Assembly: GCA_963662795.1 (NCBI GenBank)
Contig: OY759746.1
Location: forward strand, 1,984,001 to 2,048,000
Source: Spirochaetia bacterium
Lineage (GTDB): Bacteria; Spirochaetota; Spirochaetia; CADAEX01
Length of the DNA: 64,000 nt
Reading direction: 5' to 3'
Part shown: piece after piece, positions 34,665 to 55,009 of the stretch
Layout of the letters: each line of letters starts with the position of its first letter
Position numbering within the stretch: position 1 is the stretch's first letter
Translations under genes and position numbers: made by a program
The notes under the pieces: model-generated
What the model saw: the letters and a program-made list of their open reading frames with translations, nothing else
Databases searched by the model: none
Told to the model about the DNA's origin: nothing

Positions 34665-34725
34665 AGAGATTATTATTGCAAACAAAACAATTATACTTTT
34701 ATAATAAAGAATAAAGGAAATAGAA

Positions 34726-35799: not shown

Positions 35800-35825
35800 G
35801 AGAAACTGGGTGCCTTGAAAAAGAA

Positions 35826-37444: not shown

Positions 37445-37491
37445 ACAGGAAATATATATAGGTATAGTGTAATTACCTAACAGTTTAAGAA

Positions 37492-37744: not shown

Positions 37745-37844
37745 AAGATTTAAATATTTTTTAAAAAATAGTGAGATATATAATTAATAAACTGAGTGAT
37801 TTGTGAATATAAAATATAATGCATTGGAATAGTTAAAGTTTAGC

Positions 37845-38630
37845 ATGAAAAAGACTAGGAATAACGCAGAAGAATTTGCAAAAGAAATTATTGAGAGAGT
37901 ATTGAATAAAGAAGTTTTTATAAATGATGACAATACTCAACCAGGTATGTACGATTTGCGAATTGGTGAAATTGATGCTCCTGAATATGCAATAGAATGT
38001 ATTAGCTCTGCTGATCCAGTGTTTACAGAAACATGGAATGTTGGTCCTGCTAAAGGATCCTTTTATTGTAAAGTTCAAGGAGATTGGACAATAGAAATAG
38101 AAACTAATGCAATAATAAAAAGTATTAATAAAAAAATTGAGAAATTACTTCAAGAAATGGAAAATGCGAAAATATTCCAAATATCTACTAAAAAGCTTCA
38201 AAACTACTATTATGATGAAATATTAAAACGATTAAAAATATCATTTGTAAATTGTTATAGAAAAAATGGTACAGGGAAAATAATTCTTACAATGTCTGGA
38301 GGTGGTGGGGGAGTTGATTATAGAGGGAATTCAATTTCTCCATGGATTGAAGAATTTATAACAAAAGAAAAAAACAAAGATGTTATTGATAAATTACAAA
38401 AATCTAATGCAAAATATAGGCATATTTTTGTTTTTGTTGCCCTAACACAAAAAAAAGAGGATTGGGGAATAATCTCATATTTAACAGATGATTTTAAATA
38501 TCTTCCATCTGAAGTTCCTAAACTACCAGATTCAATAAATGGAATATGGATAATACCCATTTTGGGTAGTAGTAGTAATCAAGGTATTTATTATAATGGT
38601 CATAATTGGAATATTTTTAATATAAACTAA
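37845..38630 (+). CDS. Hypothetical protein (possible nuclease fold)
   Basis: 'EEFAKEII..YDLRI..AIEC'. Confidence 0.55.
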   Translation: MKKTRNNAEEFAKEIIERVLNKEVFINDDNTQPGMYDLRIGEIDAPEYAIECISSADPVFTETWNVGPAKGSFYCKVQGDWTIEIETNAIIKSINKKIEKLLQEMENAKIFQISTKKLQNYYYDEILKRLKISFVNCYRKNGTGKIILTMSGGGGGVDYRGNSISPWIEEFITKEKNKDVIDKLQKSNAKYRHIFVFVALTQKKEDWGIISYLTDDFKYLPSEVPKLPDSINGIWIIPILGSSSNQGIYYNGHNWNIFNIN

Positions 38631-38689
38631 ATGTAATACTTTAAATATACAGATTATTAATAAAAATAAATTTACGAGTATTCCAAAAA

Positions 38690-38943
38690 GTCCGGCCTTG
38701 GCGGTGCCGTGCGGCCTGGACAAGAAGGGACGTACTGCTGCTAACAGCGAATGACCGGTTCCGGCTGTTTCTAAGGAAACAGCCTCCACCCAAATTGCCG
38801 AAATAATACATGTCAAGAATAATGGAATAGAGTATAAACTTTTGGAGTTAAAAAAACACCATCGGCAACTTCGGTCATTCGCGAGACGTTATATGCAATA
38901 CGACCCCAAGAGGACGCCGCCCGGACCTCCGGCCCACGGGCGA
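38690..38943 (+). repeat. Junction J24 (core D)
   Basis: TAAC(38745)...GTT(38888). Confidence 0.9.
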
Positions 38944-39017
38944 AGAAAATAGTATCTACTGTATAATATACTTTATACACAAGATATATAGTTTTCTAGT
39001 TATTTAATATGTTATGT
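38943..39017 (+). other. Conserved leader with TATAAT and attI-like site (C25)
   Basis: CTGTATAAT..ATATATAGTTTTCTAGTTATTTAATAT-G|TTATGT; exact complement ACATAAC at 42305. Confidence 0.75.
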
Positions 39018-39045
39018 CGACAAAAAATCAATAATGGAGTGTTAA

Positions 39046-40605
39046 ATGGTTAAAATCAATAAACTAATAATAGAAAATTTCAAAAAATTCCGTTATAGGC
39101 TTGATGTTGATTTTAACGATGAAATAAACATTTTTATCGGTGATAATGAATCTGGAAAAAGTACTATTTTAAAGGCTCTTGAATATGTTACAAGTGGAAA
39201 TAGATATAAAATAGAATCGGATGGTTTTGATAAGATAATAAATTTAGACTCTGTAAATGAATTTATGAAGTCCGAAAAAAAGTATAATGACTTACCAGTA
39301 GTATTTGTAGAAGTCTACCTAGATTCAAAAGATAATCCAGCCCTAAACGGCAAAAATAATCTTCTTAAAAAAGAATGTGATGGATTAAGACTAAAAATAT
39401 GTCCAGATGATGATTTGTCTAGTGCAATTAAATCTATTCTTGAAGAAAGTGATGGCATATTTCCATATGATTTTTATACTATCAAATTCAATACATTCCA
39501 AGGTGAAGGTTACACAGGTTACAAGAAGTATATTCAATCACTTTTAGTTGATAACAGTTTGATCGGTGATGAGACTGCAATAAAGCAGTATATAAAAGAT
39601 GTTTATTCTGGTTTTGTGTCTGAATCAGAGGATAATAGGAATGAAAGTAACTATAGAAAATTAAAGAAAAAATTCACAGATGACACATTAAGTGCTGTTA
39701 ATTCTAAAATTGAAGACTATTCTTTTGGTTTAAAACATGATCGAAAATCTAATTTGAAAACTGATTTATCAATATATGAAGATGAGATCAGCATAGATAA
39801 TAAAGGAAAAGGTCGCCAATGCTTCATAAAGACAGAATTTGCATTAATGAAAGATACTGGACATATAGATATTGTCCTTCTTGAAGAGCCAGAGAATCAT
39901 CTTAGTCACAATAATATGAATCTACTTATTGAAAAAATACTAATATCAAAATCAAGGCAATTATTTATTGCTACACATAGCAATGAAATCTGTTCTCGGC
40001 TGAACCTTCTGAATAGCCATCTAATAAATAGTAGTTCTGAAAAAACATTGAAGCTTAATAAAATAAATCCTGAAACTGCTGATTTTTTTATGAAAGCTCC
40101 AAATAATGATCTTCTAAGATATGTCACTTCAAATAAGGTAATTTTAGTTGAAGGAAACGCAGAATACATCCTTATGGATGAATTAGTGAAAATTGTTTCA
40201 GGAAAAACATCCAAAGAGAATGGATTCTCAATAATTTCTGTTGGAGGACTTAGTTTTAAAAGATATATGGAAATTGGAAATTATTTAAAAATAAAAACAG
40301 CAGTAATTAGAGATAATGATAGTGATTATAAAAAGCATTGTATAAATAATTATACCGATTCTGTTTCCAAAGAAACAAAAATTTTCTATACAACTGATAA
40401 TGATTTATATACTTTTGAAGTTTGTTTGTATAATGATAATAAAAAATTATGCAATGAGCTATTTAGTGCAGGCCGTAAATCATTATCAGTTAAAGAGTAT
40501 ATGTTACAAAACAAAGCTGAGTCAGCTTATCAATTACTCAAAAATGGTTCTATAATAAATGTCCCAGACTATATTTGCGCAGGAATAAAATGGATAATAG
40601 ACTGA
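39046..40605 (+). CDS. gajA: Gabija GajA-like OLD nuclease (ABC ATPase + TOPRIM)
   Basis: GDNESGKST, LLEEPENHL, ATHS, VEGNAE, RDND; followed by UvrD helicase. Confidence 0.82.
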   Translation: MVKINKLIIENFKKFRYRLDVDFNDEINIFIGDNESGKSTILKALEYVTSGNRYKIESDGFDKIINLDSVNEFMKSEKKYNDLPVVFVEVYLDSKDNPALNGKNNLLKKECDGLRLKICPDDDLSSAIKSILEESDGIFPYDFYTIKFNTFQGEGYTGYKKYIQSLLVDNSLIGDETAIKQYIKDVYSGFVSESEDNRNESNYRKLKKKFTDDTLSAVNSKIEDYSFGLKHDRKSNLKTDLSIYEDEISIDNKGKGRQCFIKTEFALMKDTGHIDIVLLEEPENHLSHNNMNLLIEKILISKSRQLFIATHSNEICSRLNLLNSHLINSSSEKTLKLNKINPETADFFMKAPNNDLLRYVTSNKVILVEGNAEYILMDELVKIVSGKTSKENGFSIISVGGLSFKRYMEIGNYLKIKTAVIRDNDSDYKKHCINNYTDSVSKETKIFYTTDNDLYTFEVCLYNDNKKLCNELFSAGRKSLSVKEYMLQNKAESAYQLLKNGSIINVPDYICAGIKWIID

Positions 40606-41615
40606 TTCTTGCTGTCGCTGGAGCTGGAAAAACAACTTACATAATTAGAAAATTAACCCTTGAAAAAAGAGCCTTAATTATCACTTATACAAATAATAAT
40701 TTCGAAAATTTAAGAACATCGGTAATCGATAAATTTGGCTATATTCCACCCAATATTACAATTATGACTTATTTTTCTTTTATTCATTCATTTTGTTATT
40801 TACCTTATTTAAAAGATGAATGTAAAACAAATGGAATTTTCTTTAAGCCAAACATAAATCAATATGCGAAAGGACGATCTCGATACATTACAAATGGAGA
40901 CCGACTTTATTCTAATCGAATTTCTAAATTTATAATGGAAAAGGGAATTTTAAAAAATGTGATAGAAAGAATAGAAAGATATTTTGATTTACTATTTATT
41001 GATGAAATACAAGATTTTGCTGGAAATGATTTTAACTTTTTACTCAGTCTAAATACTTTGAAAATTCCTCAATTATATGTTGGTGACTTTTATCAGCATA
41101 CTTTTGATACGAGCAGAGATGGTATCGTAAATGGAACTCTTCATGATGATTTACAAAAATATAAAGAGTGGTATACAAAAATAGGATTTGATATTGACGA
41201 AGAAACATTATCAAGAAGCTATCGTTGCGGTCCTGTGATATGTGACTATATTTCAAGAAATTTAGGAATTAGCATAAAATCTCATAAACAAGATAAATCT
41301 TACATTAAGTTTACAAAAGATGAAGCAGATGTCAAAGAATTATTCTTAAACAATACTATTATAAAATTATTTTATCAGAAACATTATGCTTATAAAAAAT
41401 ATACAAGAAATTGGGGTGACTCAAAAGGAGAAAACCAGTATTTAGATATTTGTGTTGCATTGAATGATGGTACATATAAAAAATATTGCAGTTCTGAATT
41501 ACATAATTTACCAGAACAAACAAAAAATAAGTTATATGTTGCACTAACACGTGCAAATAGAAACGTATATATGGTTCCTGAGAAGGTTGTTAAAAAAATT
41601 GTGCAATCCAATTAG
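40590..41615 (+). CDS. gajB: Gabija GajB-like UvrD helicase
   Basis: AVAGAGKT, DEIQD, VGD..Q, SYRC, YVALTRA. Confidence 0.82.
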   Translation: MDNRLILAVAGAGKTTYIIRKLTLEKRALIITYTNNNFENLRTSVIDKFGYIPPNITIMTYFSFIHSFCYLPYLKDECKTNGIFFKPNINQYAKGRSRYITNGDRLYSNRISKFIMEKGILKNVIERIERYFDLLFIDEIQDFAGNDFNFLLSLNTLKIPQLYVGDFYQHTFDTSRDGIVNGTLHDDLQKYKEWYTKIGFDIDEETLSRSYRCGPVICDYISRNLGISIKSHKQDKSYIKFTKDEADVKELFLNNTIIKLFYQKHYAYKKYTRNWGDSKGENQYLDICVALNDGTYKKYCSSELHNLPEQTKNKLYVALTRANRNVYMVPEKVVKKIVQSN

Positions 41616-41635
41616 TCTTTATCTTTTTTTGTAAG

Positions 41636-42310
41636 ATGGGGTATGTTCAATTGAGTGAATGGTTAAATAAAGCAAAAGAAAATCTCTTCAATTCCAGTGT
41701 AGAAAAAAATAACCTTCAAAAAGCAATAACTGAATGGAGCGTAACAGAAAATGTAATAGATTATCTTGAAGAGGTAGAATCATTTGAGGATTTTTATGCC
41801 AGTTGTGAACTATGTGAGCATCCAAATCTTAGATGGCATTTTGAAATACTGAATGAGTATACAAATAAATCTTTATGGGTAGGTTCAAAATGTATTTTGA
41901 AGTTTGGAATAAGGCTTCTTGATGAATATGGATCAGAGTACAATCATGAAGAGAAAGAAAAAAAGTTAAACTCCATAATTACTAGAAAAAGAAAGTCAAT
42001 TAAAGATGAAAAGTTACTGTCTATTTTAAGGAAATTATGGAATAGAGATACAGAATTCAGAAGCTATATTGAAAAATCGGTTAAATTTTTTAAAAAAAAT
42101 AACTCATTTACACCCAAACAAATTCTTACGATAGATTGGAGATTAAGTAAACATCACATTAAATTTGCTAAAGAAATATTCAAAGTTAGAATAAGAAATC
42201 AAAAAGAACGAGATGAAATATATAATTTAGAAGATTGGCAGAAGGAGAAATTGATTAAGTACTTAACTCATGATCAGATAGAAAAATATATGAAAGGAAT
42301 GCGGACATAA
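41636..42310 (+). CDS. Hypothetical protein with putative zinc site, third gene of the Gabija cassette
   Basis: 'CELCEH..F.I.N..VGSKCI'. Confidence 0.65.
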   Translation: MGYVQLSEWLNKAKENLFNSSVEKNNLQKAITEWSVTENVIDYLEEVESFEDFYASCELCEHPNLRWHFEILNEYTNKSLWVGSKCILKFGIRLLDEYGSEYNHEEKEKKLNSIITRKRKSIKDEKLLSILRKLWNRDTEFRSYIEKSVKFFKKNNSFTPKQILTIDWRLSKHHIKFAKEIFKVRIRNQKERDEIYNLEDWQKEKLIKYLTHDQIEKYMKGMRT

Positions 42311-42442
42311 CAAGAGATTTGGAGTAGTCAAAATTTATTGTCACGATTCTGGCTAAAGACGTTCGGCTGATAGCCTCACTCCAGAATCGTGACAATTCCG
42401 CGAAGACACGGAACAATTTTGCTACTCAAATCGTCGTTATAC
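42305..42442 (+). repeat. Nested canonical attC (C25)
   Basis: ACATAAC..GATTTGGAGTAG..TTGTCACGATTCTGG/CCAGAATCGTGACAA..CTACTCAAATC..GTTATAC. Confidence 0.82.
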
Positions 42443-42466
42443 TGGAATATTTAGAAAAGAGGAAAA

Positions 42467-42756
42467 GTCCGGCCTTGGCGGTGCCGTGCGGCCTGGACAA
42501 GAAGGGGTCGTACTGCATATAACAGCGATTATTTCGCTGCGCTCCCTGTGGTCGCTTGGGCTCCTGCCAGTTGAGCTGGCAGATCGCCATATTTTGTTTT
42601 CATAAAACCGGAACAACATGTGTTTTATACTCTTCAAGTTTGTAAAAACCAAATAAAAGTATTTTAGAGGTTAGTCACAAAACATCGAATAATCGCGAGA
42701 CGTTCTCCGAAATACCGCCCCAAGAAGAGATCGCCCGGACCTCCGGCCCACGGGCG
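42467..42756 (+). repeat. Junction J25 (core C)
   Basis: TAAC(42523)...GTT(42702). Confidence 0.9.
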
Positions 42757-42830
42757 GAAGATAGGAAAAGAAAATATAATAATCAGAAAGTGTTTAATAT
42801 TGCTAAAATGGATATTGATTATTTGACAAC

Positions 42831-42859
42831 TTGACAAATAAAATAATTCAAAATATATT
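42831..42859 (+). promoter_or_regulatory. TA promoter, probably leaderless
   Basis: TTGACA-17-TATATT, ATG follows after 6 nt, no SD. Confidence 0.6.
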
Positions 42860-42865
42860 AATTGT

Positions 42866-43105
42866 ATGAAAACAATGCAAATAGGGGATTTTAAAGCTCA
42901 ATTTTCAAAGGTTCTTGAAGAAGTGAAACAAGGGGAAGAAATAATAATTTCTTATGGCAAGAAGAAAAAAAATGTAGCTGTAATAATTCCATATGAAGAG
43001 TATAAAGAGAAAAATAAGATAAAACTGGGCTTATTAAAGAATAAAGTAAGCTATAAATTTAATACTGATTATGAAATGACAGAAGAGGAGTTAGTAAACC
43101 TTTGA
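42866..43105 (+). CDS. Phd/YefM family antitoxin
   Basis: 'IGDFKAQFSKVLEEVKQGEEIII'. Confidence 0.88.
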   Translation: MKTMQIGDFKAQFSKVLEEVKQGEEIIISYGKKKKNVAVIIPYEEYKEKNKIKLGLLKNKVSYKFNTDYEMTEEELVNL

Positions 43106-43500
43106 AATATCTTCTCGATACGCATTATTTAATCTGGAGTTTGATTGATCCGGAAAAAATAGATAAGAAGAAAAAAAAGATATTATTAGATGAAAATTCG
43201 GAAAAATATATAAGCCAAATAAGCTTTTGGGAAATATCAATCAAATATTCACTTGGTAAGTTAGAATTAAATGGAATTACCCCTGAAGAATTGCTTGAAG
43301 CAGCGATTGAATCAGGATTTCAAATATTGGAATTGGAAACAAAAGTACTAGCAACATCGTATAAACTACCGAAGAAAGACAAGCACAAAGATCCTTTTGA
43401 CCGATTAATGATTTGGGAATGTATTTGCAATGAATATATTTTCTTGACAGAAGATGAAAAGGTAAAGGAATATAAAGAAAACGGCTTAAAAATAGTTTAG
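43102..43500 (+). CDS. vapC: PIN-domain toxin
   Basis: 'YLLDTH..WEI.IK..HKDPFDRL'. Confidence 0.9.
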   Translation: MKYLLDTHYLIWSLIDPEKIDKKKKKILLDENSEKYISQISFWEISIKYSLGKLELNGITPEELLEAAIESGFQILELETKVLATSYKLPKKDKHKDPFDRLMIWECICNEYIFLTEDEKVKEYKENGLKIV

Positions 43501-43550
43501 AATAAAATCTATCAAATAAGTAGCAAACATAGACAGTAACAGAAAAACGC

Positions 43551-43833
43551 CCAAGCCTTGGCGGTGCCGTGCGGCTTGGAAGAGAGGGGCGGTACTTCGG
43601 AGAACAGCGATTATTTCGCTGCACTCCCGATGGTCGCTTGGGCTCCTGCCAGTTGAACTGGCAGATCGCCATATTTTGTTTTCATAAAACCAGAACTGCA
43701 TGTATTTTATGTTTTTTATGTTTAAAAAACCAAATAAATGTATTTTTAGAGGTTAGCCACAAAACATCGAATAATCGCGAGACGTTATTTGAAATGCCCC
43801 GTAGGAAAATATATCGCGCCTTCCTGGCGCGAT
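43551..43833 (+). repeat. Junction J26 (core C)
   Basis: GAAC(43605)...GTT(43784); variant 5' hairpin. Confidence 0.88.
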
Positions 43834-43878
43834 GGGAAATTCTAAAGACTAATGGAAATTAGTTAAAATGAAATGTAA

Positions 43879-44289
43879 TTATAAAGTATTGAGACCAGCT
43901 TTGATACAAGCTGCTGTTAATTCTTTATCTAAAGATCCTATTGAACCCTGTTTTCTAATTCCAAGTTCCAAATAAGCAGCATCATAAGCACTTAAGTTAT
44001 AGATCTGAGTAAGTTCCAGAAGTTTTTCAGTGTATTCACTACCATAATTTGAATCAGTTATAAAATTAAATGAAGAAAGAAGCTTATTTATATTTAGAAC
44101 ATCATTGTGTTTTAAGCGTTTTCTTTTTACAGCAGTTGTTAAAACATTACTCATTTCATACCACCATAGTAGAGGAATATAAACTTCATCATTTTCTTCA
44201 ATATTTAGAAAAGATTTTTTAATAATTTCTGATTTTTCATCAGGAAGAAATAGAGATGCACAAAAAGAGCAATCAAGAATATAAACCAT
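43879..44289 (-). CDS. vapC: PIN-domain toxin (inverted in cassette)
   Basis: 'ILDCS..WWYEMSN..LSAYDAAYLEL..LD'. Confidence 0.9.
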   Translation of the reverse strand: MVYILDCSFCASLFLPDEKSEIIKKSFLNIEENDEVYIPLLWWYEMSNVLTTAVKRKRLKHNDVLNINKLLSSFNFITDSNYGSEYTEKLLELTQIYNLSAYDAAYLELGIRKQGSIGSLDKELTAACIKAGLNTL

Positions 44290-44290
44290 T

Positions 44291-44521
44291 TTATTTCCTG
44301 CCAGATTTAATAGCTTCAAGTATGTTAAATTTCTCGTTTAAAGAGCTTTGATATTGAAATAATTGTGCAATTATCTCTTTACGAAGATATGTGTCTTCAG
44401 AAAAAGGAATAATTTTAGCAACAGGTTTTCCTCTTTTTGTTATGGTATAATTCTTGCCTTTTTGAACTTCTTCAATTATTTCTGAAAAATGTGTTTTAGC
44501 ATCAAAAGTACCAATATTCAT
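44291..44521 (-). CDS. Phd/YefM family antitoxin
   Basis: 'FDAKTHFSEIIEEV..ITKRGKPVA'; promoter TTGACT-17-TATACT at 44568-44540. Confidence 0.9.
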   Translation of the reverse strand: MNIGTFDAKTHFSEIIEEVQKGKNYTITKRGKPVAKIIPFSEDTYLRKEIIAQLFQYQSSLNEKFNILEAIKSGRK

Positions 44522-44637
44522 AAAGACCTCTTATAATCTAGTATAGTAAGCTAGTAGCATAAAGTCAAGAAATATAGTAAAGAATAATTACAAGAGTAAA
44601 AACTTTTAATTTTGTAAGATATAGCGCTAAAGCAAGA

Positions 44638-44902
44638 AAGCCTATAGACGTCCTGTCTATAGGCTTAATACGGGGCACTTCAAATAACAGAGGATAATGC
44701 GCTACACTCGGAGTACCTCGCTTGGCCTGCGGCACACATCGTAGATATTAAGAATACAGCTTCTATAAACAACAAGTTTTTGAAAAAATATATTACAACT
44801 TTTAGGTATTCACACTTATCCTACGATGCGTCGCTTATCCTCGGGACGTTATATGCAATACGACCCCAAGAGAAATCGCCCGGACCTCCGGCCCACGGGC
44901 GA
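44638..44902 (+). repeat. Junction J27 (core B)
   Basis: Variant 3' hairpin AAGCCTATAGAC..GTCTATAGGCTT; TAAC(44688)...GTT(44848). Confidence 0.88.
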
Positions 44903-44976
44903 AGAAAAGGTGATTTGCTGTATAATATCCTCTATATTTAAAATATATAGTTTTCTGGTTATTTAATATGTTAACT
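44902..44976 (+). other. Conserved leader with attI-like site (C28)
   Basis: ATATATAGTTTTCTGGTTATTTAATAT-G|TTAACT; exact complement AGTTAAC at 47063. Confidence 0.75.
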
Positions 44977-45039
44977 GTACAAATCGATTGAATAAATTTA
45001 TGTTATACTAATAAATGAATATTATTCTGGAGTAAAAAA

Positions 45040-47055
45040 ATGACTGAACTCCCGAAAGTTGGATATACACATACAAAAGAAAGAAAAAGCATTAAACAAC
45101 TTGCAAATATATTACCAGATGAATTATTTATCCTTAGATCAGAAGATGGTGGAGATTATGGTGTTGATCGCATTATTGAAGTAATTGAAAATTGGGAAGC
45201 AACAAATATTCGATGTCATATTCAAATAAAAAGTACAACAAAAAACTCTAAAAATGAAAAGCTGAATTATTCTGTTCCAATAAAGACAATTAATTATTTA
45301 TTGAATAGCTTGAATTCTATTTTTATTGTTTATTCTGAAAGCGAAAACAAATATTATTGGGAATGGGTCGGTCGTATATCTACAAAAAAGAATCAATCAA
45401 ATAGTAAAGGCAAAAAAACATTTTCCTATTATTTTTCTTCAATATTAGATATCGAGTCATTCAAGAAAATTCACACACGATTAATTAGTGATTCAGAATT
45501 TGTAAAGAAAATTAATTTATCTGCAAGTCCATATAAAAAGGTAATTTTAACTGAAAAAATACATGAAAGTTCATATAGAGAATATCTTATTATGTACGCT
45601 GAAGGAAAATATGAAAAAATCATTGCAATTTCTAAGGAAATAGAAAAGATCACACCCACATTAAATTCTCTAATTTCTCTCTGTTATTATAGTATTTATA
45701 ATTATGATGAAGCTTTAAATCATATATTAAAAGCCGAACAAGAAGAGAAAAATAGTGAATTTCAGAAAATAAAGGCTGCAATTTTATGTGAAAAAGGATT
45801 AGCAGAAAATAATACAGAGATTCTTGAGCAAGCAAAAAAAATATTTTTGGAAATTAAAAGTAATGATTGGGGGTGGATGGATTTATACAATTATGGAAAT
45901 ATTTTATCTGGTTTGGCAGAATTTGAACAAGCTGAAGATTGTTATAAAAATGCGATACAACTTGAAGAAAATGAGGCAATTGTTTGGAAAAATCTTAGTA
46001 GCATATACTATCATAAAAATGATTATGAAAAAGAAATGGATTGTTTAAATAAAGCTCTGGAAATTGATGAAAACTTAATTGAGGCATTAATTTGTAAGGG
46101 GATTTCTCTTGGAAATAACTATTCTGAATATTTAGAAGCTATTACTTGTTTAAGGAAAGCATTAGAGCTCTCAAGGAAGAATCTGTATAAAAATAACTCA
46201 GTTTATTATTGGTTAAGTTATTTCCTAAATCAAAGTAAGCAATATAAAGAATCTCTGATAATGATTGAAGAAGGTTTAAAATATCATCCAGGAGATAGAA
46301 ACTTAGATGGTTTAAGGGTAAAAACCTTAATAATAGCCTCAGAATCCTTAAAAGAATATGAAAATATTGTTATAACTGAACTTGATAGAATTATTGATAA
46401 ATACCCAGATAATATTTGGGCACTAAAAGAGAAAATAAAAATATTAGGTCGTCAAAAATCCTTACACGAAATATTCCCATTAATTAAAAAATGTTTTTTA
46501 CTCTATAATTATGATATTGACATTGAAATAATTATGGATTTAACACTAAATCAAATCATGTATATTCTGGACAATATAAATATCGTTTCTGAATATAGAA
46601 AAAATAACAATATCGGCAGTTATTTTTTTGAAAGCTATAATATTGGAATTTCAATTATGCAGAAAATAGAAATGAAAATGAATCTAAAATTTATTGCTTT
46701 CTTTTACCTATTGAATGATTTAGATGAAAATGCAGTCTTTCCTGTTATGGAAGATCATGCAAAGGCTATATTAGACTTAATCGAAAATATAACAGAGTTC
46801 TTAGTTTATGATCTTATTGATGGATCAATTGATGAAAAATCGGAAAGAATAACACATATAATAACCACACTTCCTGAAATTCTCCTAATTGAACTATCAA
46901 GACAGAATGGATGGAATCTTGTAAAGCATAATTTTAAGATCGAAATAGCAGATTATTTTATTGAAAATTCTTTAATAATACATAATTGGTTGAACAATTG
47001 TTTGGAACCTATTTTAAAAGGAGCAAATAACATTTTTAAATGGGATAAAAAATAG
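45040..47055 (+). CDS. DUF4365-like nuclease domain + TPR protein
   Basis: 'DYGVDRIIE..IQIKST' N-terminus; multiple TPRs. Confidence 0.78.
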   Translation: MTELPKVGYTHTKERKSIKQLANILPDELFILRSEDGGDYGVDRIIEVIENWEATNIRCHIQIKSTTKNSKNEKLNYSVPIKTINYLLNSLNSIFIVYSESENKYYWEWVGRISTKKNQSNSKGKKTFSYYFSSILDIESFKKIHTRLISDSEFVKKINLSASPYKKVILTEKIHESSYREYLIMYAEGKYEKIIAISKEIEKITPTLNSLISLCYYSIYNYDEALNHILKAEQEEKNSEFQKIKAAILCEKGLAENNTEILEQAKKIFLEIKSNDWGWMDLYNYGNILSGLAEFEQAEDCYKNAIQLEENEAIVWKNLSSIYYHKNDYEKEMDCLNKALEIDENLIEALICKGISLGNNYSEYLEAITCLRKALELSRKNLYKNNSVYYWLSYFLNQSKQYKESLIMIEEGLKYHPGDRNLDGLRVKTLIIASESLKEYENIVITELDRIIDKYPDNIWALKEKIKILGRQKSLHEIFPLIKKCFLLYNYDIDIEIIMDLTLNQIMYILDNINIVSEYRKNNNIGSYFFESYNIGISIMQKIEMKMNLKFIAFFYLLNDLDENAVFPVMEDHAKAILDLIENITEFLVYDLIDGSIDEKSERITHIITTLPEILLIELSRQNGWNLVKHNFKIEIADYFIENSLIIHNWLNNCLEPILKGANNIFKWDKK

Positions 47056-47062
47056 CATAGAC

Positions 47063-47168
47063 AGTTAACAAACGCATGCAACTGATAAAATCTTTGTCAC
47101 ACATTTTGCTTACGCAAAATATGCGCCAACCCTTCGGGACGATTTTGCAACTGATGCGGCCGTTAAAT
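47063..47168 (+). repeat. Nested canonical attC (C28)
   Basis: AGTTAAC..CGCATGCA...TGATGCG..GTTAAAT. Confidence 0.8.
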
Positions 47169-47196
47169 ATACTGGAATATTTAGAAAAGAGGAAAA

Positions 47197-47449
47197 GTCC
47201 GGCCTTGGCGGTGCCGTGCGGCCTGGACAAGAAGGGGTCGTACTGCATATAACAGCGAATGGCCGGTTCCGGCTGTTTCTAAGGAAGCAGCCTCCACCCA
47301 AATTGCCGAAATAATTCATGTTAAGAATAATGGAATAGAGTATAAACTTTTAAAGTGAAAAACACCATCGGCAACTTCGGTCATTCGCGGGACGTTATCC
47401 ACAATACCCCCACAAGAAGCGATCGCCCGGACCTCCGGCCGACGGGCGA
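47197..47449 (+). repeat. Junction J28 (core D)
   Basis: TAAC(47253)...GTT(47394). Confidence 0.9.
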
Positions 47450-47509
47450 GAGAATCCAGAATAATGAATATGTTTAAAGAAAGCTGATGATATATAATGT
47501 AAATAGTAA

Positions 47510-48163
47510 ATGGAGAATGATATGGGAATTGTTTATATTTTAACTAATGATGCAATGCCAGGAATAATCAAAATAGGAATAACTGATGGAACTGTTGAAG
47601 ATAGAATAAAAAATCTTGACAATACTTCTTTGCCATTACCATATAGGTTTTATTTTGCTATTAAAAGTAGTAGATACAAGGATATTGAAAAATTAGCGCA
47701 TAATGCTTTTTCTGAATATAGGGTAAGAGAAAATAGGGAATTTTTCCGAATTGATCCGGAACGTGCAGTCTCAGCATTAAGGATATCTGGAGAGAATGAA
47801 ATAAAATTAAAGAATGAAATGATAGATGAAAGTGGAAGTGTTGTAGAGAATAAAATCGAAGAAACAAAGTCATATAAAAAACGATTTTCTTTTGATAATG
47901 TAGGTATTCCTATCGGGGCAGAATTGGCATTTACTCGAGATGAGAGTAAAAAATGTATTGTAATATCAAATAGCGAAGTTGAATATAATAATCAATCTTA
48001 TTCATTATCAAAATTAGCAGATATATTTCTTACTGAAATGGGTTATAATTGGAAATCAGTACAAGGACCTGCATATTTTGAATATAATGGGAAAACACTT
48101 TATGAACTTAAAAAAGAAATGGAAGAAGAAGTCTTAGAGATAGAGGAAGAAGAATCCAAATAG
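47510..48163 (+). CDS. GIY-YIG (T5orf172-like) nuclease family protein
   Basis: 'GIVYILTN.AMPG..KIG.T..R..E..H..REFF'. Confidence 0.85.
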   Translation: MENDMGIVYILTNDAMPGIIKIGITDGTVEDRIKNLDNTSLPLPYRFYFAIKSSRYKDIEKLAHNAFSEYRVRENREFFRIDPERAVSALRISGENEIKLKNEMIDESGSVVENKIEETKSYKKRFSFDNVGIPIGAELAFTRDESKKCIVISNSEVEYNNQSYSLSKLADIFLTEMGYNWKSVQGPAYFEYNGKTLYELKKEMEEEVLEIEEEESK

Positions 48164-48205
48164 CAAATGTTCAATTTTTTAATCCATTAATTTTTGAAAA
48201 AGCTA

Positions 48206-48477
48206 GTCCGGCCTTGGCTCCGCCGTACGGCCTGGACAAGAAGTGGGGGCACTGTTGGATAACAGAGGATAATTCGCTGCGCTCGGAATACCTCGCTTGG
48301 CCTGCGGCATATTTTGCTATCAATAAAACAGTTCATATTATATTTTTACTCTCTTTAAATATATTTCCCAAGACTATTATGTTAAAAAAGGTTTTAGCAA
48401 AACATCGCTTATCCTCAGGACGTTATCCACAATGCCCCCACAAGATGCGATCGCCCGGACCTCCGGCCGACGGGCGA
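48206..48477 (+). repeat. Junction J29 (core B)
   Basis: TAAC(48263)...GTT(48422). Confidence 0.9.
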
Positions 48478-48543
48478 GGATATTCAATATTGAAAATGTA
48501 CAATACCAATCATAAAATGTGTTTGATTATAAAAGGGGAAAAT

Positions 48544-49158
48544 ATGACGTGTTATTACAAATATTGTAAAAAATGTCGTGAAAGAAATGATGAATATGAA
48601 CCAATTGAAAGTTTTCAAAAAAATGACGGGAATATTAAAATTATGTTTATTGGGCAAGATCCAACAATTAGAAAAAGGCAAGAAAGAGTAAGAATGGCAT
48701 TAATGCTTGATGATGAGAATAGTCAAATAAAAAGATGGATAAAAAATATTTTTGGAAATGAATTATTAATTAAAAGTAAAATATTAGGGACAAATCTTGT
48801 AAAGTGCGTATTAAAAGAAGTGCCAACAAATGATGGTGTTGGAGGAATAGATTATTTAATCGCTCCTTTTAATCATTGTAAAGAGCATTTAATAAAAGAA
48901 TTCAATACATTTAAACCCGACTATGTGTTTACATTAGGTGAACCTTGTCATCAATTGTTTTATTCGTTAATAAAAAATATCGATAATCCAAAAAAACAAA
49001 AAATGAGCGAATATTTTAATGGTGAATTGCATGAACTAAAATACAATGAAATAAATTTTAAATATAGTCCATTATTACATATTCAAACATATCGTGTTGC
49101 TCAAAAATATGGTGACATAGTTAAGAAATTTGAAAATGAAATAAAAAAAATAAGATAA
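48544..49158 (+). CDS. Uracil-DNA glycosylase superfamily protein
   Basis: CxxC, 'MFIGQDP', 'TNLVKC', 'TLG', 'PLLH'; real start after GGGGA RBS. Confidence 0.75.
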   Translation: MTCYYKYCKKCRERNDEYEPIESFQKNDGNIKIMFIGQDPTIRKRQERVRMALMLDDENSQIKRWIKNIFGNELLIKSKILGTNLVKCVLKEVPTNDGVGGIDYLIAPFNHCKEHLIKEFNTFKPDYVFTLGEPCHQLFYSLIKNIDNPKKQKMSEYFNGELHELKYNEINFKYSPLLHIQTYRVAQKYGDIVKKFENEIKKIR

Positions 49159-49203
49159 ACCGATAATTTGTACTAGTAGAATAATTACCTGACAATAGAA
49201 GAA

Positions 49204-49475
49204 GTCCAGCCTTGGCTCCGCCGTACGGCCTGGACAAGAAGTGGGGGCACTGGTGGATAACAGAGGATACTGCGCTACGCTCGGAGTACCTCGCTTGGCC
49301 TTCGGCACACATCACAGGTTTTAAATTACTGCTTTTAGAATTAACAAGTTTTCAAAAGAAAGATATATAATATTTGTCTTTTTATTCATTGGCTGTGATT
49401 CGTCGCGTATCCTCAAAACGTTATCCACAATGCCCCCACAAGAGAAAATCGCCCGGGCCTCCGGCCGACGGGCGA
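49204..49475 (+). repeat. Junction J30 (core B, partly degenerate)
   Basis: TAAC(49261)...GTT(49420). Confidence 0.88.
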
Positions 49476-49561
49476 GGATTTTATCCAAACAGAATCCATT
49501 GGGAAAAAGCGCAAAGACTATTTTCATAATAAACTATTATTGAAATAAAGGAGAAAACAAT

Positions 49562-49825
49562 ATGATTGAGTCAAGGTGTGGTTTATTGTGTAGTATTTGT
49601 AAATATCGTGAGCAATTTAACTGTGCTGGATGTTTAACAATCGAAAAACCTTTTTGGAGTGATAGTTGTCCTGTGAAAAATTGTTGTGAAAAAAGAAACT
49701 ATGAGCATTGTGGAAAATGTAATGATTTTCCATGTGAGTTATTAAATCAGTTTTCATATGATAAAGAACAGGGTGATAATGGGAAACGTATTGAACAGTG
49801 CAGATACTGGATAAAAGGAAAATAA
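49562..49825 (+). CDS. Cys-rich DUF3795-like protein
   Basis: 'CGLLCSIC..CAGC..C.V..CC..HCGKC.DFPC'. Confidence 0.8.
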   Translation: MIESRCGLLCSICKYREQFNCAGCLTIEKPFWSDSCPVKNCCEKRNYEHCGKCNDFPCELLNQFSYDKEQGDNGKRIEQCRYWIKGK

Positions 49826-50149
49826 ATGTCAACAACAGCTGATTTTGTGGAATATATATGTGAACAAGTAAACGGAGTAGGTAATATCCGTTATAAAAAA
49901 ATGTTCGGCGAATATATGGTTTATATAAATGAAAAACCAGTGTTACTGGTGTGTGACAATACTCCATACATAAAAATGCTAGATTGTATTTCTGAATTAA
50001 TGAAAAATGCTGAAACTGGATATCCATACAAAGGGTCAAAAGAACATTATATTTTAGATATTGACAATTCAGATTTCGCAAAAGAGATTGTCACGATTCT
50101 TGAAAAGAATTATGAAGTACCAAAGAAAAAAGCTAAAAAAGCAAAATAA
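49826..50149 (+). CDS. TfoX N-terminal domain protein
   Basis: 'YKKMFGEY.VY...LVCDN..YIK'. Confidence 0.8.
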   Translation: MSTTADFVEYICEQVNGVGNIRYKKMFGEYMVYINEKPVLLVCDNTPYIKMLDCISELMKNAETGYPYKGSKEHYILDIDNSDFAKEIVTILEKNYEVPKKKAKKAK

Positions 50150-50233
50150 TTCATCTTTGGATAAATTGTTGCAGTAATGAGCATTTTTAATAGATGTATG
50201 TACTGGTAGAATAATTACCTGACAATAGTATAA

Positions 50234-50506
50234 GTCCGGCCTTGGCTTCCAGCCGTGCGACCTGGACAAGAAGTGGGGGCCCTGGTGGATAACAGAGGAT
50301 AAAGCGCTTCGCTCGGAGTACCTCGCTTGACCTTCGGCACACATCGTAGGGTTTAAACTACCTCTTTAAGAAATACTTAGTTTTGGAAGAAAAATATTAC
50401 AACTTTGAAATAATAATTCTTGAGCTACGATGCGTCGCTTATCCTCGGGACGTTCTCCGAAATACCGCCCCAAGAGGAGACGCCCGGACCTCCGGCCCAC
50501 GGGCGA
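50234..50506 (+). repeat. Junction J31 (core B)
   Basis: TAAC(50293)...GTT(50452). Confidence 0.9.
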
Positions 50507-50779
50507 GGAAATATAGGCAAAGAAATAATATTTGATATTTTCCCTATAGCATATTCTGAACAACCAAAAGATTGTATTTTGAGAATATTTATTTGGATTT
50601 AAATAAAATTAATAAAAAAAGATCGAATTCTGGATATTTTAAGGATTTTGTCGTGTGATATTATTCCGAAAGAAATGTTTAATAAGTGTTTTAAAAAAGT
50701 AATATTACGAATTAAAAAACCTTGTAGATTTGGTATTTAAAGTGTATACTATGAAGTGTATACTAAAAGAGGTAGAATT

Positions 50780-51025
50780 ATGGAAATAAGTACAAAAGAA
50801 CTCAGGATAAAACCTGGTAGAATAATAGAAAAAGTCTCAAATGGACAGGAAGTTGTAGTAACTTTCAGAGGAAAAGCATTGGCTAGAATAGTGCCTATGC
50901 CTAATTTGGGAAAAAATATCGAAGAGAATGAAAAAGAAGAACTCTTTGGATTATGGAAAAATCATAAAAATATTGGTGATGTTGATAATTACGTAAGAAA
51001 AATAAGAAAAGGAAGAGAGTTTTGA
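50780..51025 (+). CDS. Phd/YefM antitoxin (paralog of 19421)
   Basis: Identical N-terminus to 19421..19666. Confidence 0.88.
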   Translation: MEISTKELRIKPGRIIEKVSNGQEVVVTFRGKALARIVPMPNLGKNIEENEKEELFGLWKNHKNIGDVDNYVRKIRKGREF

Positions 51026-51399
51026 TAATTGATACAGATGTAATAATATGGTTTTTAAGAGGAAATGAAAAAGCCAAGGAAGTAGTTTATAAAAATATCC
51101 CATTTAAAATATCTGTAATAACCTATATGGAAATTGTGCAGGGAATGAAAGATAAAAAAGAATTATTAGTTTTTCAAAAGCAGTTGAGAAAATGGAATGT
51201 AGAGATTTTACAAATAGATACAGAAATATCGTCAAGAGCGATGTTTTTTGTAGAAGATTATTTTTTAAGTCATTCAATGGAATTATCAGATGCTTTAATT
51301 GCAGCGACAGGAATACAAACAAAAGATATAGTATTAACAGCAAATGATAAACATTATAAATTTATTCCCAACATTCAGTTGGAAAAGTTTAAACCTTAG
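51022..51399 (+). CDS. vapC: PIN-domain toxin (paralog of 19663)
   Basis: Near-identical to 19663..20040. Confidence 0.9.
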   Translation: MIIDTDVIIWFLRGNEKAKEVVYKNIPFKISVITYMEIVQGMKDKKELLVFQKQLRKWNVEILQIDTEISSRAMFFVEDYFLSHSMELSDALIAATGIQTKDIVLTANDKHYKFIPNIQLEKFKP

Positions 51400-51405
51400 A
51401 AAGCC

Positions 51406-51666
51406 CCAAGCCTTGGCGGTGCCGTGCGGCTTGGAAGAAGGGGCGGTACTTCCGAGAACAGCGGTTAAAGCGCTACGCTCGCAGTAGCTCGCTTGGGCTC
51501 CTGCCTGTGCGCAGGCAGTTCACCAAAAAAACACGAGTTACTCCAAGCTATAAATTAAAGAAAGTAAACATACAATGCAAATAGATTAATGTGTTTTCTT
51601 CGCTTAACCGCGGGACGTTATTTGAAATGCCCCGTAGGAAAATATATCGCGCCGTCCTGGCGCGAT
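51406..51666 (+). repeat. Junction J32 (core A)
   Basis: GAAC(51459)...GTT(51617). Confidence 0.88.
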
Positions 51667-51711
51667 GGGAAATTCTAAAGACTAATGGAAATTAGTTAAA
51701 ATGAAATGTAA

Positions 51712-52122
51712 TTATAAAGTATTGAGACCAGCTTTGATACAAGCTGCTGTTAATTCTTTATCTAAAGATCCTATTGAACCCTGTTTTCTAATTCCAAGTT
51801 CCAAATAAGCAGCATCATAAGCACTTAAGTTATAGATCTGAGTAAGTTCCAGAAGTTTTTCAGTATATTCACTACCATAATTTGAATCAGTTATAAAATT
51901 AAATGAAGAAAGAAGCTTATTAATATTTAGAACATCATTGTGTTTTAAGCGTTTTCTTTTTACAGCAGTTGTTAAAACATTACTCATTTCATACCACCAT
52001 AGTAGAGGAATATAAACTTCATCATTTTCTTCAATATTTAGAAAAGATTTTTTAATAATTTCTGATTTTTCATCAGGAAGAAATAGAGATGCACAAAAAG
52101 AGCAATCAAGAATATAAACCAT
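51712..52122 (-). CDS. vapC: PIN-domain toxin (same protein as 43879)
   Basis: Identical translation. Confidence 0.9.
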   Translation of the reverse strand: MVYILDCSFCASLFLPDEKSEIIKKSFLNIEENDEVYIPLLWWYEMSNVLTTAVKRKRLKHNDVLNINKLLSSFNFITDSNYGSEYTEKLLELTQIYNLSAYDAAYLELGIRKQGSIGSLDKELTAACIKAGLNTL

Positions 52123-52123
52123 T

Positions 52124-52354
52124 TTATTTCCTGCCAGATTTAATAGCTTCAAGTATGTTAAATTTCTCGTTTAAAGAGCTTTGATATTGAAATAATTGTG
52201 CAATTATCTCTTTACGAAGATATGTGTCTTCAGAAAAAGGAATAATTTTAGCAACAGGTTTTCCTCTTTTTGTTATGGTATAATTCTTGCCTTTTTGAAC
52301 TTCTTCAATTATTTCTGAAAAATGTGTTTTAGCATCAAAAGTACCAATGTTCAT
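52124..52354 (-). CDS. Phd/YefM antitoxin (same protein as 44291)
   Basis: Identical translation. Confidence 0.9.
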   Translation of the reverse strand: MNIGTFDAKTHFSEIIEEVQKGKNYTITKRGKPVAKIIPFSEDTYLRKEIIAQLFQYQSSLNEKFNILEAIKSGRK

Positions 52355-52470
52355 ATCGTCCTCTTATAATCTAGTATAGTAAGCTAGTAGCATAAAGTCA
52401 AGAAATATAGTAAAGAATAATTACAAGAGTAAAAACTTTTAATTTTGTAAGATATAGCGCTAAAGCAAGA

Positions 52471-52733
52471 AAGCCTATAGACGTCCTGTCTATAGGCTTA
52501 ATACGGGGCACTTCAAATAACAGAGGATAAAGCGCTACGCTCCCTTTGGTCGCTTGGGCTTCGCCACACATCGTAGGGTTTTTACTACAACATCTAAAAA
52601 CAACAAGTTTTGGAAGAAAATATTGCAACTTTGAAAATATCATTCTTATCCTACGATGCGTCGCTTATCCTCGGGACGTTATATGCAATACGACCCCAAG
52701 AGAAAATCGCCCGGACCTCCGGCCCACGGGCGA
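52471..52733 (+). repeat. Junction J33 (core B)
   Basis: TAAC(52521)...GTT(52678). Confidence 0.88.
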
Positions 52734-52805
52734 GAAAAAATAATTCGCTGTATATACACTCTATATATGAAATATATGGTTTTCTAGTTATTTAATATGT
52801 TAAAT
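52733..52805 (+). other. Conserved leader with attI-like site (C34)
   Basis: ATATATGGTTTTCTAGTTATTTAATAT-G|TTAAAT; exact complement ATTTAAC at 54526. Confidence 0.75.
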
Positions 52806-52821
52806 ATACAAAGGGGATTAA

Positions 52822-54531
52822 ATGAAGAAAAATTCATTATTTTTAGGTGAAACAAATGATACAGACATTAATCTCATAATTTCAGAAAATGATTATAGAC
52901 CTGCTATCTTAAGCTTAAATAATAAACATTTTCCCAAAATAATTCCACAAGACGATCAAATAATGAAATTATTAAAAGAATCACAGAATAAATATAAGGA
53001 TTCAATACGATTCGTATATAATAATCGTAGATATTCAGCTTTAAATAATCAATTTGATTTTTCTGTAATATACGCAGAAACAATTATTGAAGCAGATATA
53101 AATAATATTGAAGATATACAAATTCAAAGTGTTCGATATTATTTATCTAATTTTAATCGTTATATTTTAGATGGCAATATTAGCAATAAATTTGAGAATA
53201 GTGAATTTACTCGTAAAATATCAATGCCTGAATTTAGTACAAAAATTAATTATAAGAACTTAGAAGTATCTATTTTCAACAAATACTTATTTGATACAGA
53301 AAAGAATGATAGAAAATTTAAGATTGATGAGTATCCAGTAATAGAATATAGAACCAATGATAAATTCGAATTTTATGACATTGTATCATTTTCACATGAT
53401 TTGAGCATGATTTTTACTTATTTGACAGGATATGAATGCTATCCTATGCATATTTGGGTTAGTGATGATAATTCGTATTATAGATCTTTATATAAACCTG
53501 TACCTACAATAAGAGACATTAACATTGTTACTTCTCATGAATTTATTTTCAAATTTAAAGATCTTTGTGAAAAAAATGATTTCTCAAAAATATTTACAAA
53601 TTACTATTCAAATGAGCGATTTATAAAGTTTAAAAAACTTTATTCAAGATTTTATTATTTATACTCTTCTCAAAACGAATGGGAATATGAATTGCTTGGC
53701 TATTTAAGTGTTTTTGAGAAGTCTATTAGTAATATACAAAAGTATAAATATATTGATATAGAAATTAAAAAAAATATAATTGATACGGTAAAAAATAGTT
53801 TATTGACCGAATTTAAAAAAAATAGAAATATTGATTATGAACCCATAGAAAAAAGCGTTTTGAATTATAAAGAAAAATTAACTTACCAAAAGAAGCATTT
53901 TTTAACTTTTAGAGAGAAATATTTAGTTTGGATTGAAAACTTAGATCAAACATTGAATTCTATATTCAGTTTTGATGAAAGAGAGTTTAAAATAATAAAA
54001 AAATTAAGAGATGATATTGCTCATTCAAATTCGATTGATTATTCAGATTATGATATATCTAAAATATTTGAAATAATTGAAAAAATGAAACTAATATTAT
54101 TATATCTAATATACACCGATTTGGGATTCGATCTTAAGAGAATAATTTCGAATTTACATTCAACAATGAATCCTATATTAAGAAAATCCAATATAGATAA
54201 AGTAGCATTAAAACGGGCTAGTGGACGAATTCCATTTATTAAAATAAACAACCATGATTTTAAGTATTTCGCAGAACATAATTTAATGTATCTTGTTGTG
54301 GAAAAGAAAACAGAAAATACAGATATCAATTATTTAATTAATAAATCGTTTACAGAAAACGTTAATAATTCATGGATAAATGATGACGGTAAACAATTTC
54401 ATAATATACGTGACTTTTTGAAGGATTTATATAAACCTAATAATATAGAAATCAACTTTTCTTCTGGTTATGTAGAAACAAAGGATGGTTTGTTAAAAGA
54501 TGTTCATGGATTATGTATTATTGATATTTAA
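52822..54531 (+). CDS. ApeA-like HEPN domain protein
   Basis: Beta-rich N-terminus, 'FTYLTG', HEPN RxxxxH 'LRDDIAH'. Confidence 0.68.
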   Translation: MKKNSLFLGETNDTDINLIISENDYRPAILSLNNKHFPKIIPQDDQIMKLLKESQNKYKDSIRFVYNNRRYSALNNQFDFSVIYAETIIEADINNIEDIQIQSVRYYLSNFNRYILDGNISNKFENSEFTRKISMPEFSTKINYKNLEVSIFNKYLFDTEKNDRKFKIDEYPVIEYRTNDKFEFYDIVSFSHDLSMIFTYLTGYECYPMHIWVSDDNSYYRSLYKPVPTIRDINIVTSHEFIFKFKDLCEKNDFSKIFTNYYSNERFIKFKKLYSRFYYLYSSQNEWEYELLGYLSVFEKSISNIQKYKYIDIEIKKNIIDTVKNSLLTEFKKNRNIDYEPIEKSVLNYKEKLTYQKKHFLTFREKYLVWIENLDQTLNSIFSFDEREFKIIKKLRDDIAHSNSIDYSDYDISKIFEIIEKMKLILLYLIYTDLGFDLKRIISNLHSTMNPILRKSNIDKVALKRASGRIPFIKINNHDFKYFAEHNLMYLVVEKKTENTDINYLINKSFTENVNNSWINDDGKQFHNIRDFLKDLYKPNNIEINFSSGYVETKDGLLKDVHGLCIIDI

Positions 54532-54658
54532 CAAAGCCATGAACAGTGATCGAGTCTTTGGCACAACATCTGCTCACCGCTTCACTCTGAGGTAAATGTA
54601 GCGCCAATTCTTTCGCTTTGCTACAGAAGCGAGTCGGCTCGTTATGGTGACGCTAATT
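54526..54658 (+). repeat. Nested attC, R' mutated (C34)
   Basis: ATTTAAC overlapping stop..CCATGAAC...GTTATGG..GCTAATT. Confidence 0.7.
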
Positions 54659-54686
54659 ATACTGGAATATTTAGAAAAGAGGAAAA

Positions 54687-54940
54687 GTCCGGCCTTGGCG
54701 GTGCCGTGCGGCCTGGACAAGAAGGGGTCGTACTGCATATAACAGCGAATGACCGGTTCCGGCTGTTTCTAAGGAAACAGCCGGAACCCAAATTGCCGAA
54801 ATAATACATGTTAAGAATAATGGAATAGAGTATAAACTTTTGGAGTGAAAAACACCATCGTCAACTTCGGTCATTCGCGAGACGTTATGTGCAATGAGCC
54901 CGACAAGAGGAAGACGCCCGGACCTCCGGCCGACGGGCGA
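54687..54940 (+). repeat. Junction J34 (core D)
   Basis: TAAC(54743)...GTT(54884). Confidence 0.9.
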
Positions 54941-55009
54941 AGAGATGATATTTTTACTATTATTTCAGTATTAAATGTTATAATCATATAAAAAGAGGTA
55001 ATAAATTAT

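Follow-up and report, generated by a model that had tools for sequence, protein, structure and literature searches.

Putative cassettes within cassettes: classical integron-type cassettes at a leader site inside the units of an integron-like array of a Spirochaetia bacterium

We analysed a 64,000-nucleotide stretch (the window) of the genome of a Spirochaetia bacterium (GenBank assembly GCA_963662795.1, contig OY759746.1, here C1), which corresponds to C1:1984001-2048000 in a single-contig genome of 3.93 Mb with 39.7% GC. The window belongs to a long, one-directional array of about 330 kb (C1:1850132-2180020), comprising 151 parsed units and about 8% of the genome, which adjoins a tyrosine recombinase gene. 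We describe three of its units, C25, C28 and C34, in which an outer wrapper of arms, hairpins, leader and tail surrounds an inner cassette with an attC site of its own, and we weigh how this nested design could have arisen. Coordinates without a prefix are those of the window, and all features of the three units lie on the + strand.

Anatomy of three nested units

Unit C25, delimited by arm search and by the table of parsed units, occupies positions 38888-42523. It begins at a GTT with a left arm (38888-38907, the outer R' side) whose sequence, apart from one conserved mismatch in the centre, is reverse-complementary to 42504-42523, followed by hairpin 1 (38918-38942), a GC-rich element present in all units of the array, and by a leader (38943-39011) ending in ...AATATG, so that the presumed crossover point lies between 39011 and 39012. 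The inner classical cassette (39012-42436) starts with GTTATGTC, which complements the R'' box GACATAAC, and its attC (42303-42441; nhmmer E 1.6e-27) has a bottom strand predicted to fold at -34 kcal/mol. The unit is closed by the tail, hairpin 2 (about 42467-42498) and the right arm (together 42437-42523), and it is followed by an attC-like spacer of the AGCGATT...AATCGC family (42524-42701).

Units C28 (44848-47253) and C34 (52678-54743) follow the same plan. In C28 the arm (44848-44867) and hairpin 1 (about 44877-44901) precede a leader that runs to a G at 44970, the inner cassette (44971-47162) starts with GTTAACTGT, complementary to the R'' box ACAGTTAAC, and its attC (47061-47168) is followed by tail, hairpin 2 and right arm (47169-47253). 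In C34 the corresponding features are the arm (52678-52697), hairpin 1 (about 52708-52732), a leader to the G at 52799, an inner cassette (52800-54652) whose start fits its own R'' at 9 of 10 positions, a decayed attC (54523-54658) and the closing tail, hairpin 2 and right arm (54659-54743).

The left ends of the three units align from GTTATATGC through the GC-rich hairpin and the AT-rich leader to TTTAATATGTTA and diverge beyond it, and the right ends are identical from TATACTGG through the second hairpin to CATATAAC (ATAAC). The first-pass annotation had proposed that all three share the same start, end and tail, and this is exactly so: the two 20-mers and the 47-nt tail occur three times each, where that annotation had placed them, with none expected (100 shuffles). 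Its further proposal that the shared sequence stops at the inner GTT stands for the left side, where conservation across 28 leaders ends at GTTA, and for the right side of C25, where the common tail begins directly at the inner G|TT, but not for the right side of C28 and C34, as discussed below.

The cargos of the three units belong to different families by PADLOC and Pfam, as that annotation had also suggested. C25 carries a Gabija system, with GajA (39046-40605; PADLOC 1.3e-107; AAA_15 and an OLD-like TOPRIM domain in Pfam) adjacent to GajB (40575-41615; 1.8e-50; UvrD domains). C28 encodes a protein with DUF4365 (2.5e-14) and TPR domains (45040-47055), and C34 one with ApeA_NTD1 and HEPN_Apea domains (52822-54531; 2.9e-9 and 2.6e-7), an ApeA-like HEPN protein; the proteins of C28 and C34 had no match in 40 related genomes. 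The inner cassette of C25 also contains an open reading frame (ORF) of 224 aa (41636-42310) with no Pfam, PADLOC or NCBIfam match, which may be a third gene of the Gabija cassette.

The arm GTTATATGCAATACGACCC bounds seven units of the genome, among them C25, C28 and C34, and in each of the seven the leader and an inner attC are present together with the same tail. Four more cargos are thus added to the three first noticed, again unrelated: SoFic, a RES-domain protein, a set of three ORFs (a VRR-NUC nuclease and two unknown proteins) and a DUF4379-CapR protein. Throughout the leader-bearing units, the inner cargos are unrelated to one another and mostly of defence or toxin type.

Inner cassettes and their attC sites

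The start of an inner cassette tends to fit the attC at its own end. The first 10 nt complement the unit's own R'' at at least 9 positions in 11 of 28 leader-bearing units, compared with 17 of 756 non-self pairs; the scores (of 10) are 8 for C25, 9 for C28 and 9 for C34. The bottom strands of the C25 and C28 attCs fold as long imperfect, bulged hairpins with the R boxes paired (z -8.6 and -3.5), whereas that of C34, in which R' reads GCT, does not (z -0.4). The inner cassettes thus combine the two hallmarks of integron cassettes, a start complementary to their own R'' and an attC hairpin, with the attC of C34 in a decayed state.

In order to locate related sites, we built an attC profile from the seven members of the arm family and searched the whole genome. 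It recovered 20 sites, all on the + strand and inside the array and none elsewhere in the 3.9 Mb, and all 20 fall in 17 of the 28 units that bear the leader; inspection by eye adds shorter attCs in at least six further units with the leader. The inner attCs of the seven arm-family units all differ from each other and measure 111-156 nt. One wrapper (from C1:1954101) holds two clean inner cassettes in tandem, each matching its own R''.

The sole sequence common to two wrappers, a piece of 1785 nt, was rejected as shared cargo: it is an insertion sequence with 11-nt terminal inverted repeats and two transposase ORF pieces. Its two copies (C1:2074684-2076468 and C1:2146907-2148691) lie in different wrappers, each where an inner attC has its R' end. 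Another element of about 1.28 kb, 100% identical between copies, occurs in several other units.

The leader as a candidate acceptor site

The leader is an AT-rich sequence of about 70 nt that directly follows hairpin 1 and ends in ...AATATG|TTA. It is present in 28 of the 151 units and absent from the other 123, and it occurs across at least five arm families (11/58, 6/20, 3/16, 1/12 and 7/8 units, respectively; the eighth unit of the last class has a different distal arm). Leader-bearing units are longer than the others (median 2137 vs 1393 nt; Mann-Whitney p 3.6e-6). When the 28 leaders are anchored at the G, the fraction of the top base is 0.86 over positions -40 to -1, takes values of 0.86, 0.96, 1.0 and 0.89 at G, T, T and A, and is 0.48 over +4 to +23, with the highest conservation (0.88-0.99) in the last 30 nt or so before G|TT. 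Two lineages of leaders can be distinguished, A in C25 and B in C28 and C34; the C25 leader shares 91% of its sequence with leaders from other arm families, compared with 79-81% for C28 and C34.

The nested design is conserved in a second genus. In genome G011 the first unit after the Xer-like recombinase gene is nested, with a short leader, a cassette start that fits its own R'' at 10 of 10 positions and an arm identical to that of an arm family of the present genome, and nested units with other cargo and a leader are also found in G005 and G008. The leader further occurs in three metagenome contigs, each of them loaded with an inner cassette. In the metagenome contig L104, the ORF of an inner cassette behind a leader is flanked by AT-rich, degenerate sequences resembling hairpins 1 and 2.

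These observations suggest, with a probability that we put at roughly 0.7, that C25, C28 and C34 are composite two-level cassettes, in which classical cassettes were inserted at a G|TT acceptor within the leader and cargos were loaded or swapped. The outer unit would be bounded by family-specific 20-nt inverted arms and by the GC-rich hairpins common to all units; a classical cassette, consisting of genes and their own attC, would enter as a circle through a tyrosine-recombinase crossover between the G|TT of the leader and that of the cassette attC; and different cassettes would be loaded into copies of such acceptor units or swapped between them. Since insertion would take place at the leader G|TT, the leader would be an internal acceptor site that does the job of an attI without sequence relation to any attI found. 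We infer that the event ran from an empty unit to a loaded one and that it was catalysed either by a canonical IntI or by the Xer-like enzyme; the leader may in addition have some role in expression.

Several observations weigh against this reading, or against parts of it. The left ends of the seven arm-family units are only 81.6-97.6% alike (C25-C28 86.4, C25-C34 84.8, C28-C34 89.6), but the right-end 83 nt are 100% identical in six of the seven, so that the two halves of the wrapper have different histories. Judged by its sequence, the wrapper is a mosaic and not one clonal object, identical right ends having apparently been joined to two leader lineages. Furthermore, four of the seven units, including C28 and C34, have four variable bases after the inner GTT (GCT in C34) before the common tail begins. 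No inner cargo was found in two wrappers of this genome, and movement was thus not caught in the act. A scan for the sigma-70 consensus listed no promoter in the leaders (96 sites in the region vs 87.8 expected). The canonical intI gene of this genome, which has the IntI signature region (C1:412089-413302), is a pseudogene, disrupted by a frame shift and by in-frame stops; it adjoins an rRNA operon and has no cassettes beside it.

The empty form of the acceptor was likewise not encountered. In this genome there is none, the shortest true distance from leader to hairpin 2 exceeding 1100 nt; a strict pattern of leader, gap and hairpin 2 matched in none of 20 genomes of the family; no empty acceptor was seen in array stretches from G002, G005, G008 and G011 either, but the hairpin patterns catch few of the diverged units there; and in metagenomes a scan with the tail gave 0 matches, and a scan with the leader only the three loaded contigs mentioned above. 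The first-pass annotation had postulated a single empty shuttle, loaded three times or exchanging its cargo. The composite acceptor unit and the independence of the cargos are retained from this proposal; the single wrapper and the empty form are not. Apparent joints in four public runs, all of them in the form of Logan contigs that break at the repeats, consist of sides of 25-30 nt with unknown letters between them; they were set aside as repeat artefacts and are not evidence of excision.

The leader had also been called attI-like. It is common to all three units, and, as far as the junctions tell, it would be a recipient of attC cassettes at G|TT, but it has no significant likeness to the primary attI of the array or to the canonical attI sites of G005, G008 and G011, when compared by local alignment, shuffles and an anchored null. 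In 23 of 25 comparisons the local alignment gave p > 0.05, and in the anchored test as high a score was reached by fractions of 0.23, 0.046 and 0.067 of the null GTTAT sites. A core likeness between TTTAATATG|TTAT and TTGAATAT..ATG|TTAT was noticed post hoc and is retained as a weak lead only. Nor does the leader lie beside an integrase gene, its 28 copies being inside units.

This lack of attI likeness favours the explanation that a single accident has spread: a cassette entered a chance GTT secondary site of an ORF-less or promoter-bearing unit, the unit multiplied and later cargos arrived by attC x attC recombination, so that the leader would not be a selected acceptor. Integron integrases can insert cassettes at secondary sites, which counts for such an origin. 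Off-target integron activity is among the subjects of one report, as far as the part available to us goes (PMC10127599). We nevertheless consider the explanation quite improbable, as the last 30 nt or so of the leader are its best conserved portion in 28 units across at least five arm families and are kept in another genus, and as attC x attC recombination alone would leave the first cassette in place, yet every left junction has a different start matching its own attC.

The outer array and its boundaries

Every unit of the array has the layout GTTAT-arm (20 nt), CAAGAG, hairpin 1, cargo, hairpin 2, CAAGAAG, arm' and ATAAC. Hairpin 1 has 152 copies in the genome, all on the + strand and within 1.85-2.18 Mb, and hairpin 2 has 147, three of them outside that span. 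The arms fall into about a dozen recurrent families, and identical copies of some of them turn up in another genus and in metagenome contigs. Of the 137 units having both ends, 130 have arms that are reverse complements of each other; the match is at 18.3 of 20 positions within a unit vs 12.1 across families, and the arm pair of each family keeps a conserved central mismatch or one-base bulge. Mismatched arms were considered as a sign of hybrid wrappers and rejected, since only two of the 7/137 mismatched units bear a leader, which is no enrichment (Fisher p 0.63).

The boundary between consecutive units is thus a composite of about 300 nt, made up of hairpin 2, arm', spacer, arm and hairpin 1. 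The spacers (104 parsed) are about 140-180 nt long and fall into four main families. All are bounded by ..ATAAC and GAC-GTT, and their starts and ends covary like L''/L' boxes (adjusted mutual information 0.89; e.g. AGCGAAT with CATTCGC, AGAGGAT with TATCCTC) while being nearly independent of the flanking arms, so that the outer array does possess pairing, covarying boxes of the attC type. No spacer-spacer junctions occur in the array. A promoter-like TTGCCG-17-AATAAT is conserved in one spacer family and points into the next unit (38795-38823, 47303-47331).

Hairpins 1 and 2 are related to each other in direct, not inverted, orientation and are nearly invariant, and therefore show no covariation; no relevant Rfam family matches positions 37000-56000 at E up to 1. 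Both facts would fit arms and hairpins that serve as punctuation (transcript-processing elements, insulators, repetitive extragenic palindromic (REP)-like elements or ends of the IS200/IS605 type), with the inner cassettes as the only real recombination units. Such a role is highly improbable given that leaderless units (123/151) are bounded in the same way, though all 20 inner attCs lie in leader-bearing units, that in 130 of 137 units the arms match each other, that the ends of duplicated units coincide exactly with GTT and AAC, that spacer ends covary as described, and that a tyrosine recombinase gene flanks the array in four genomes. As for IS200/IS605-type ends, the only Y1 (HUH) transposase gene, found by a single PF01797 match at C1:3660696, is 1.5 Mb distant from the outer units.

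Duplication of outer units

Duplicates of plain units are frequent and in every case have the same arms; examples are 33177-34451 vs 34609-35883 and 47394-48263 vs C1:1931991-1932860. In eight near-identical pairs the identity spans cargo, unit-specific linker, hairpins and arms, and it is limited on the left by GAC|GTT in seven and on the right by AAC|AG in five; four of the eight share neither spacer. Among 20 duplicated pairs, the downstream spacer is at least 80% alike in four and the upstream spacer in one. The outer units therefore do not travel with a 3' attC core of their own: since neither spacer is usually shared between duplicates, they move without an attC-like core, which classical cassettes are not known to do, and such movement calls for crossovers at both boxes. 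We hypothesise that both strands are used by a recombinase without a strand-selecting domain, or that units are replaced in a manner similar to recombinase-mediated cassette exchange.

Homologous recombination or gene conversion offers another account of the shared wrappers, in which repeated flanks serve as homology and whole interiors are copied, so that the wrapper would represent homogenised flanks and not the product of site-specific loading. The mosaic wrappers (right 83 nt 100%, left 82-98%) and the leaders that cross arm families are in its favour, as is the abundance of repeats of 60-130 nt in the array. Gene conversion requires donors that already have the same flanks, however, and it cannot create inner cassettes whose starts complement their own R'' and whose boundaries lie at G|TT. 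The duplicates of plain units, identical including the linker up to GAC|GTT and AAC|AG, leave it almost no flanking homology. For these reasons we regard it as an unlikely explanation, compared with the insertion of classical cassettes at the leader acceptor.

Recombinases

The recombinase gene just upstream of the array (P0001, C1:1846782-1847801) points into it and encodes a Xer-like tyrosine recombinase of 339 aa. Its catalytic motifs are present, but the IntI-specific insertion is missing (24 residues vs 66 in VchIntIA): its alignment with VchIntIA (2a3v) covers residues 9-172 and 239-317, and the protein scores 200 bits against TIGR02249 (cut-off 265) and 214.5 bits against NF040815 (cut-off 220). 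The outer array is therefore not adjacent to an integrase with the IntI-specific domain. Homologues of P0001 flank the arrays of the related genomes G002, G005, G008 and G011, and its closest named relatives are from metagenome-assembled genomes of Spirochaetia. Here and in G011 the gene has the same orientation as the cassettes; in G005 and G008 it is divergent. Contigs with close P0001 homologues (L022, L023, L027) contain no hairpins by the patterns used. Further Xer-like recombinase genes are located inside array units on the reverse strand, at C1:2050713-2051597, just past the window, and at C1:1881755-1882309.

All three genomes of the sister genus encode an intact canonical IntI (384-400 bits), at a large distance from the big array, and these orthologues are accompanied by a few classical cassettes. 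In G008 an attC of the inner type adjoins the intact IntI (nhmmer E 2.7e-12), with a cassette start that complements R'', and in G011, as judged by eye, the start of the cassette beside IntI is complementary to the R'' of that cassette. The inner attC family is thus linked to a canonical IntI through the adjacencies in G008 and G011, and not in the present genome, where intI is broken.

Taken further, the data may fit a two-tier system, an idea that we advance tentatively and hold to be somewhat doubtful. Units of the first tier would be exchanged at both ends (G|TT and AA|C) by the Xer-like recombinase lacking the strand-selecting IntI domain, with reassortment of units and attC-like spacers, and canonical cassettes of the second tier would reside in portable leader acceptors, so that the units would act as mobile mini-platforms moving defence cassettes between two recombination systems.

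Comparison with known systems

An integron is usually pictured as a flat cassette row served by a single integrase and a single attI. The array resembles sedentary chromosomal integrons such as the Vibrio superintegron in its length and single direction, in its promoterless cassettes with a tyrosine recombinase next to them, in its GTT/AAC core boxes, in sites conserved in structure and variable in sequence and in its toxin-antitoxin and phage-defence cargo, and its inner cassettes behave as textbook cassettes. It differs in that the recombinase lacks the IntI-specific domain, the boundaries are composites of about 300 nt, outer units duplicate without a spacer, and some units hold a second-level acceptor with classical cassettes. 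Clusters of attC sites lacking an integrase (CALIN) are a concept that reportedly goes back to the IntegronFinder paper; the inner-type attCs of this genome are similar in having no working canonical IntI, but they lie inside leader-bearing units of another array with its own recombinase and not in a free cluster. Insertion at attI or at secondary sites is comparable insofar as the leader takes attC cassettes at G|TT, in one orientation and with tandem cassettes possible, and different insofar as the leader has no attI similarity and is carried, away from any integrase gene, in 28 copies inside mobile units.

Defence genes are known to occur in integron cassettes, according to the portion of one study available to us (10.1101/2024.07.02.601719). 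The chromosomal integrons of Treponema likewise belong to a spirochaete lineage and have a co-directional integrase, but in the accessible part of their description (PMC3607928) they have intI genes and ordinary attC sites, with no composite boundaries or cassettes within cassettes. The DUF1874 motif, in what we could consult of its report (PMC5737381), is a structure of several stems found repeatedly in consecutive intergenic regions and was proposed to be an unusual complex attC; in the Rfam comparison given above no family matched the region, which covers this motif if it is in the library. No description of the present design was found in the literature under nested cassettes, internal or secondary attI, or Xer-type integron-like arrays, and the system is probably an undescribed, unusual variant of integron-type cassette arrays.

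The locus suggests that cassettes can be nested by means of a conserved acceptor site riding on mobile units, that two tyrosine-recombinase systems may share cargo, and that an integron-like array can work even when its recombinase lacks the IntI signature domain and its units move without attC cores. This matters for the view of how cassettes arise, are expressed and change places, and for the stockpiling of defence genes. The leader, the inner attC and the arms are concrete sites for standard recombination assays.

Other boundary elements

Two outer right ends, each with hairpin 2 and one of them with an arm and the start of a spacer, are located outside the main array at C1:450514-451600, 38 kb from the broken intI. 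Within the window, a second type of boundary occurs twice (43606-44847 and 51460-52677), with the arms GTTATTTGAAATGCCCCG and its complement and with hairpins that have different stems and a common GTCCTG loop; each copy encloses two reverse-strand ORFs of 146 and 76 aa, the same in both.

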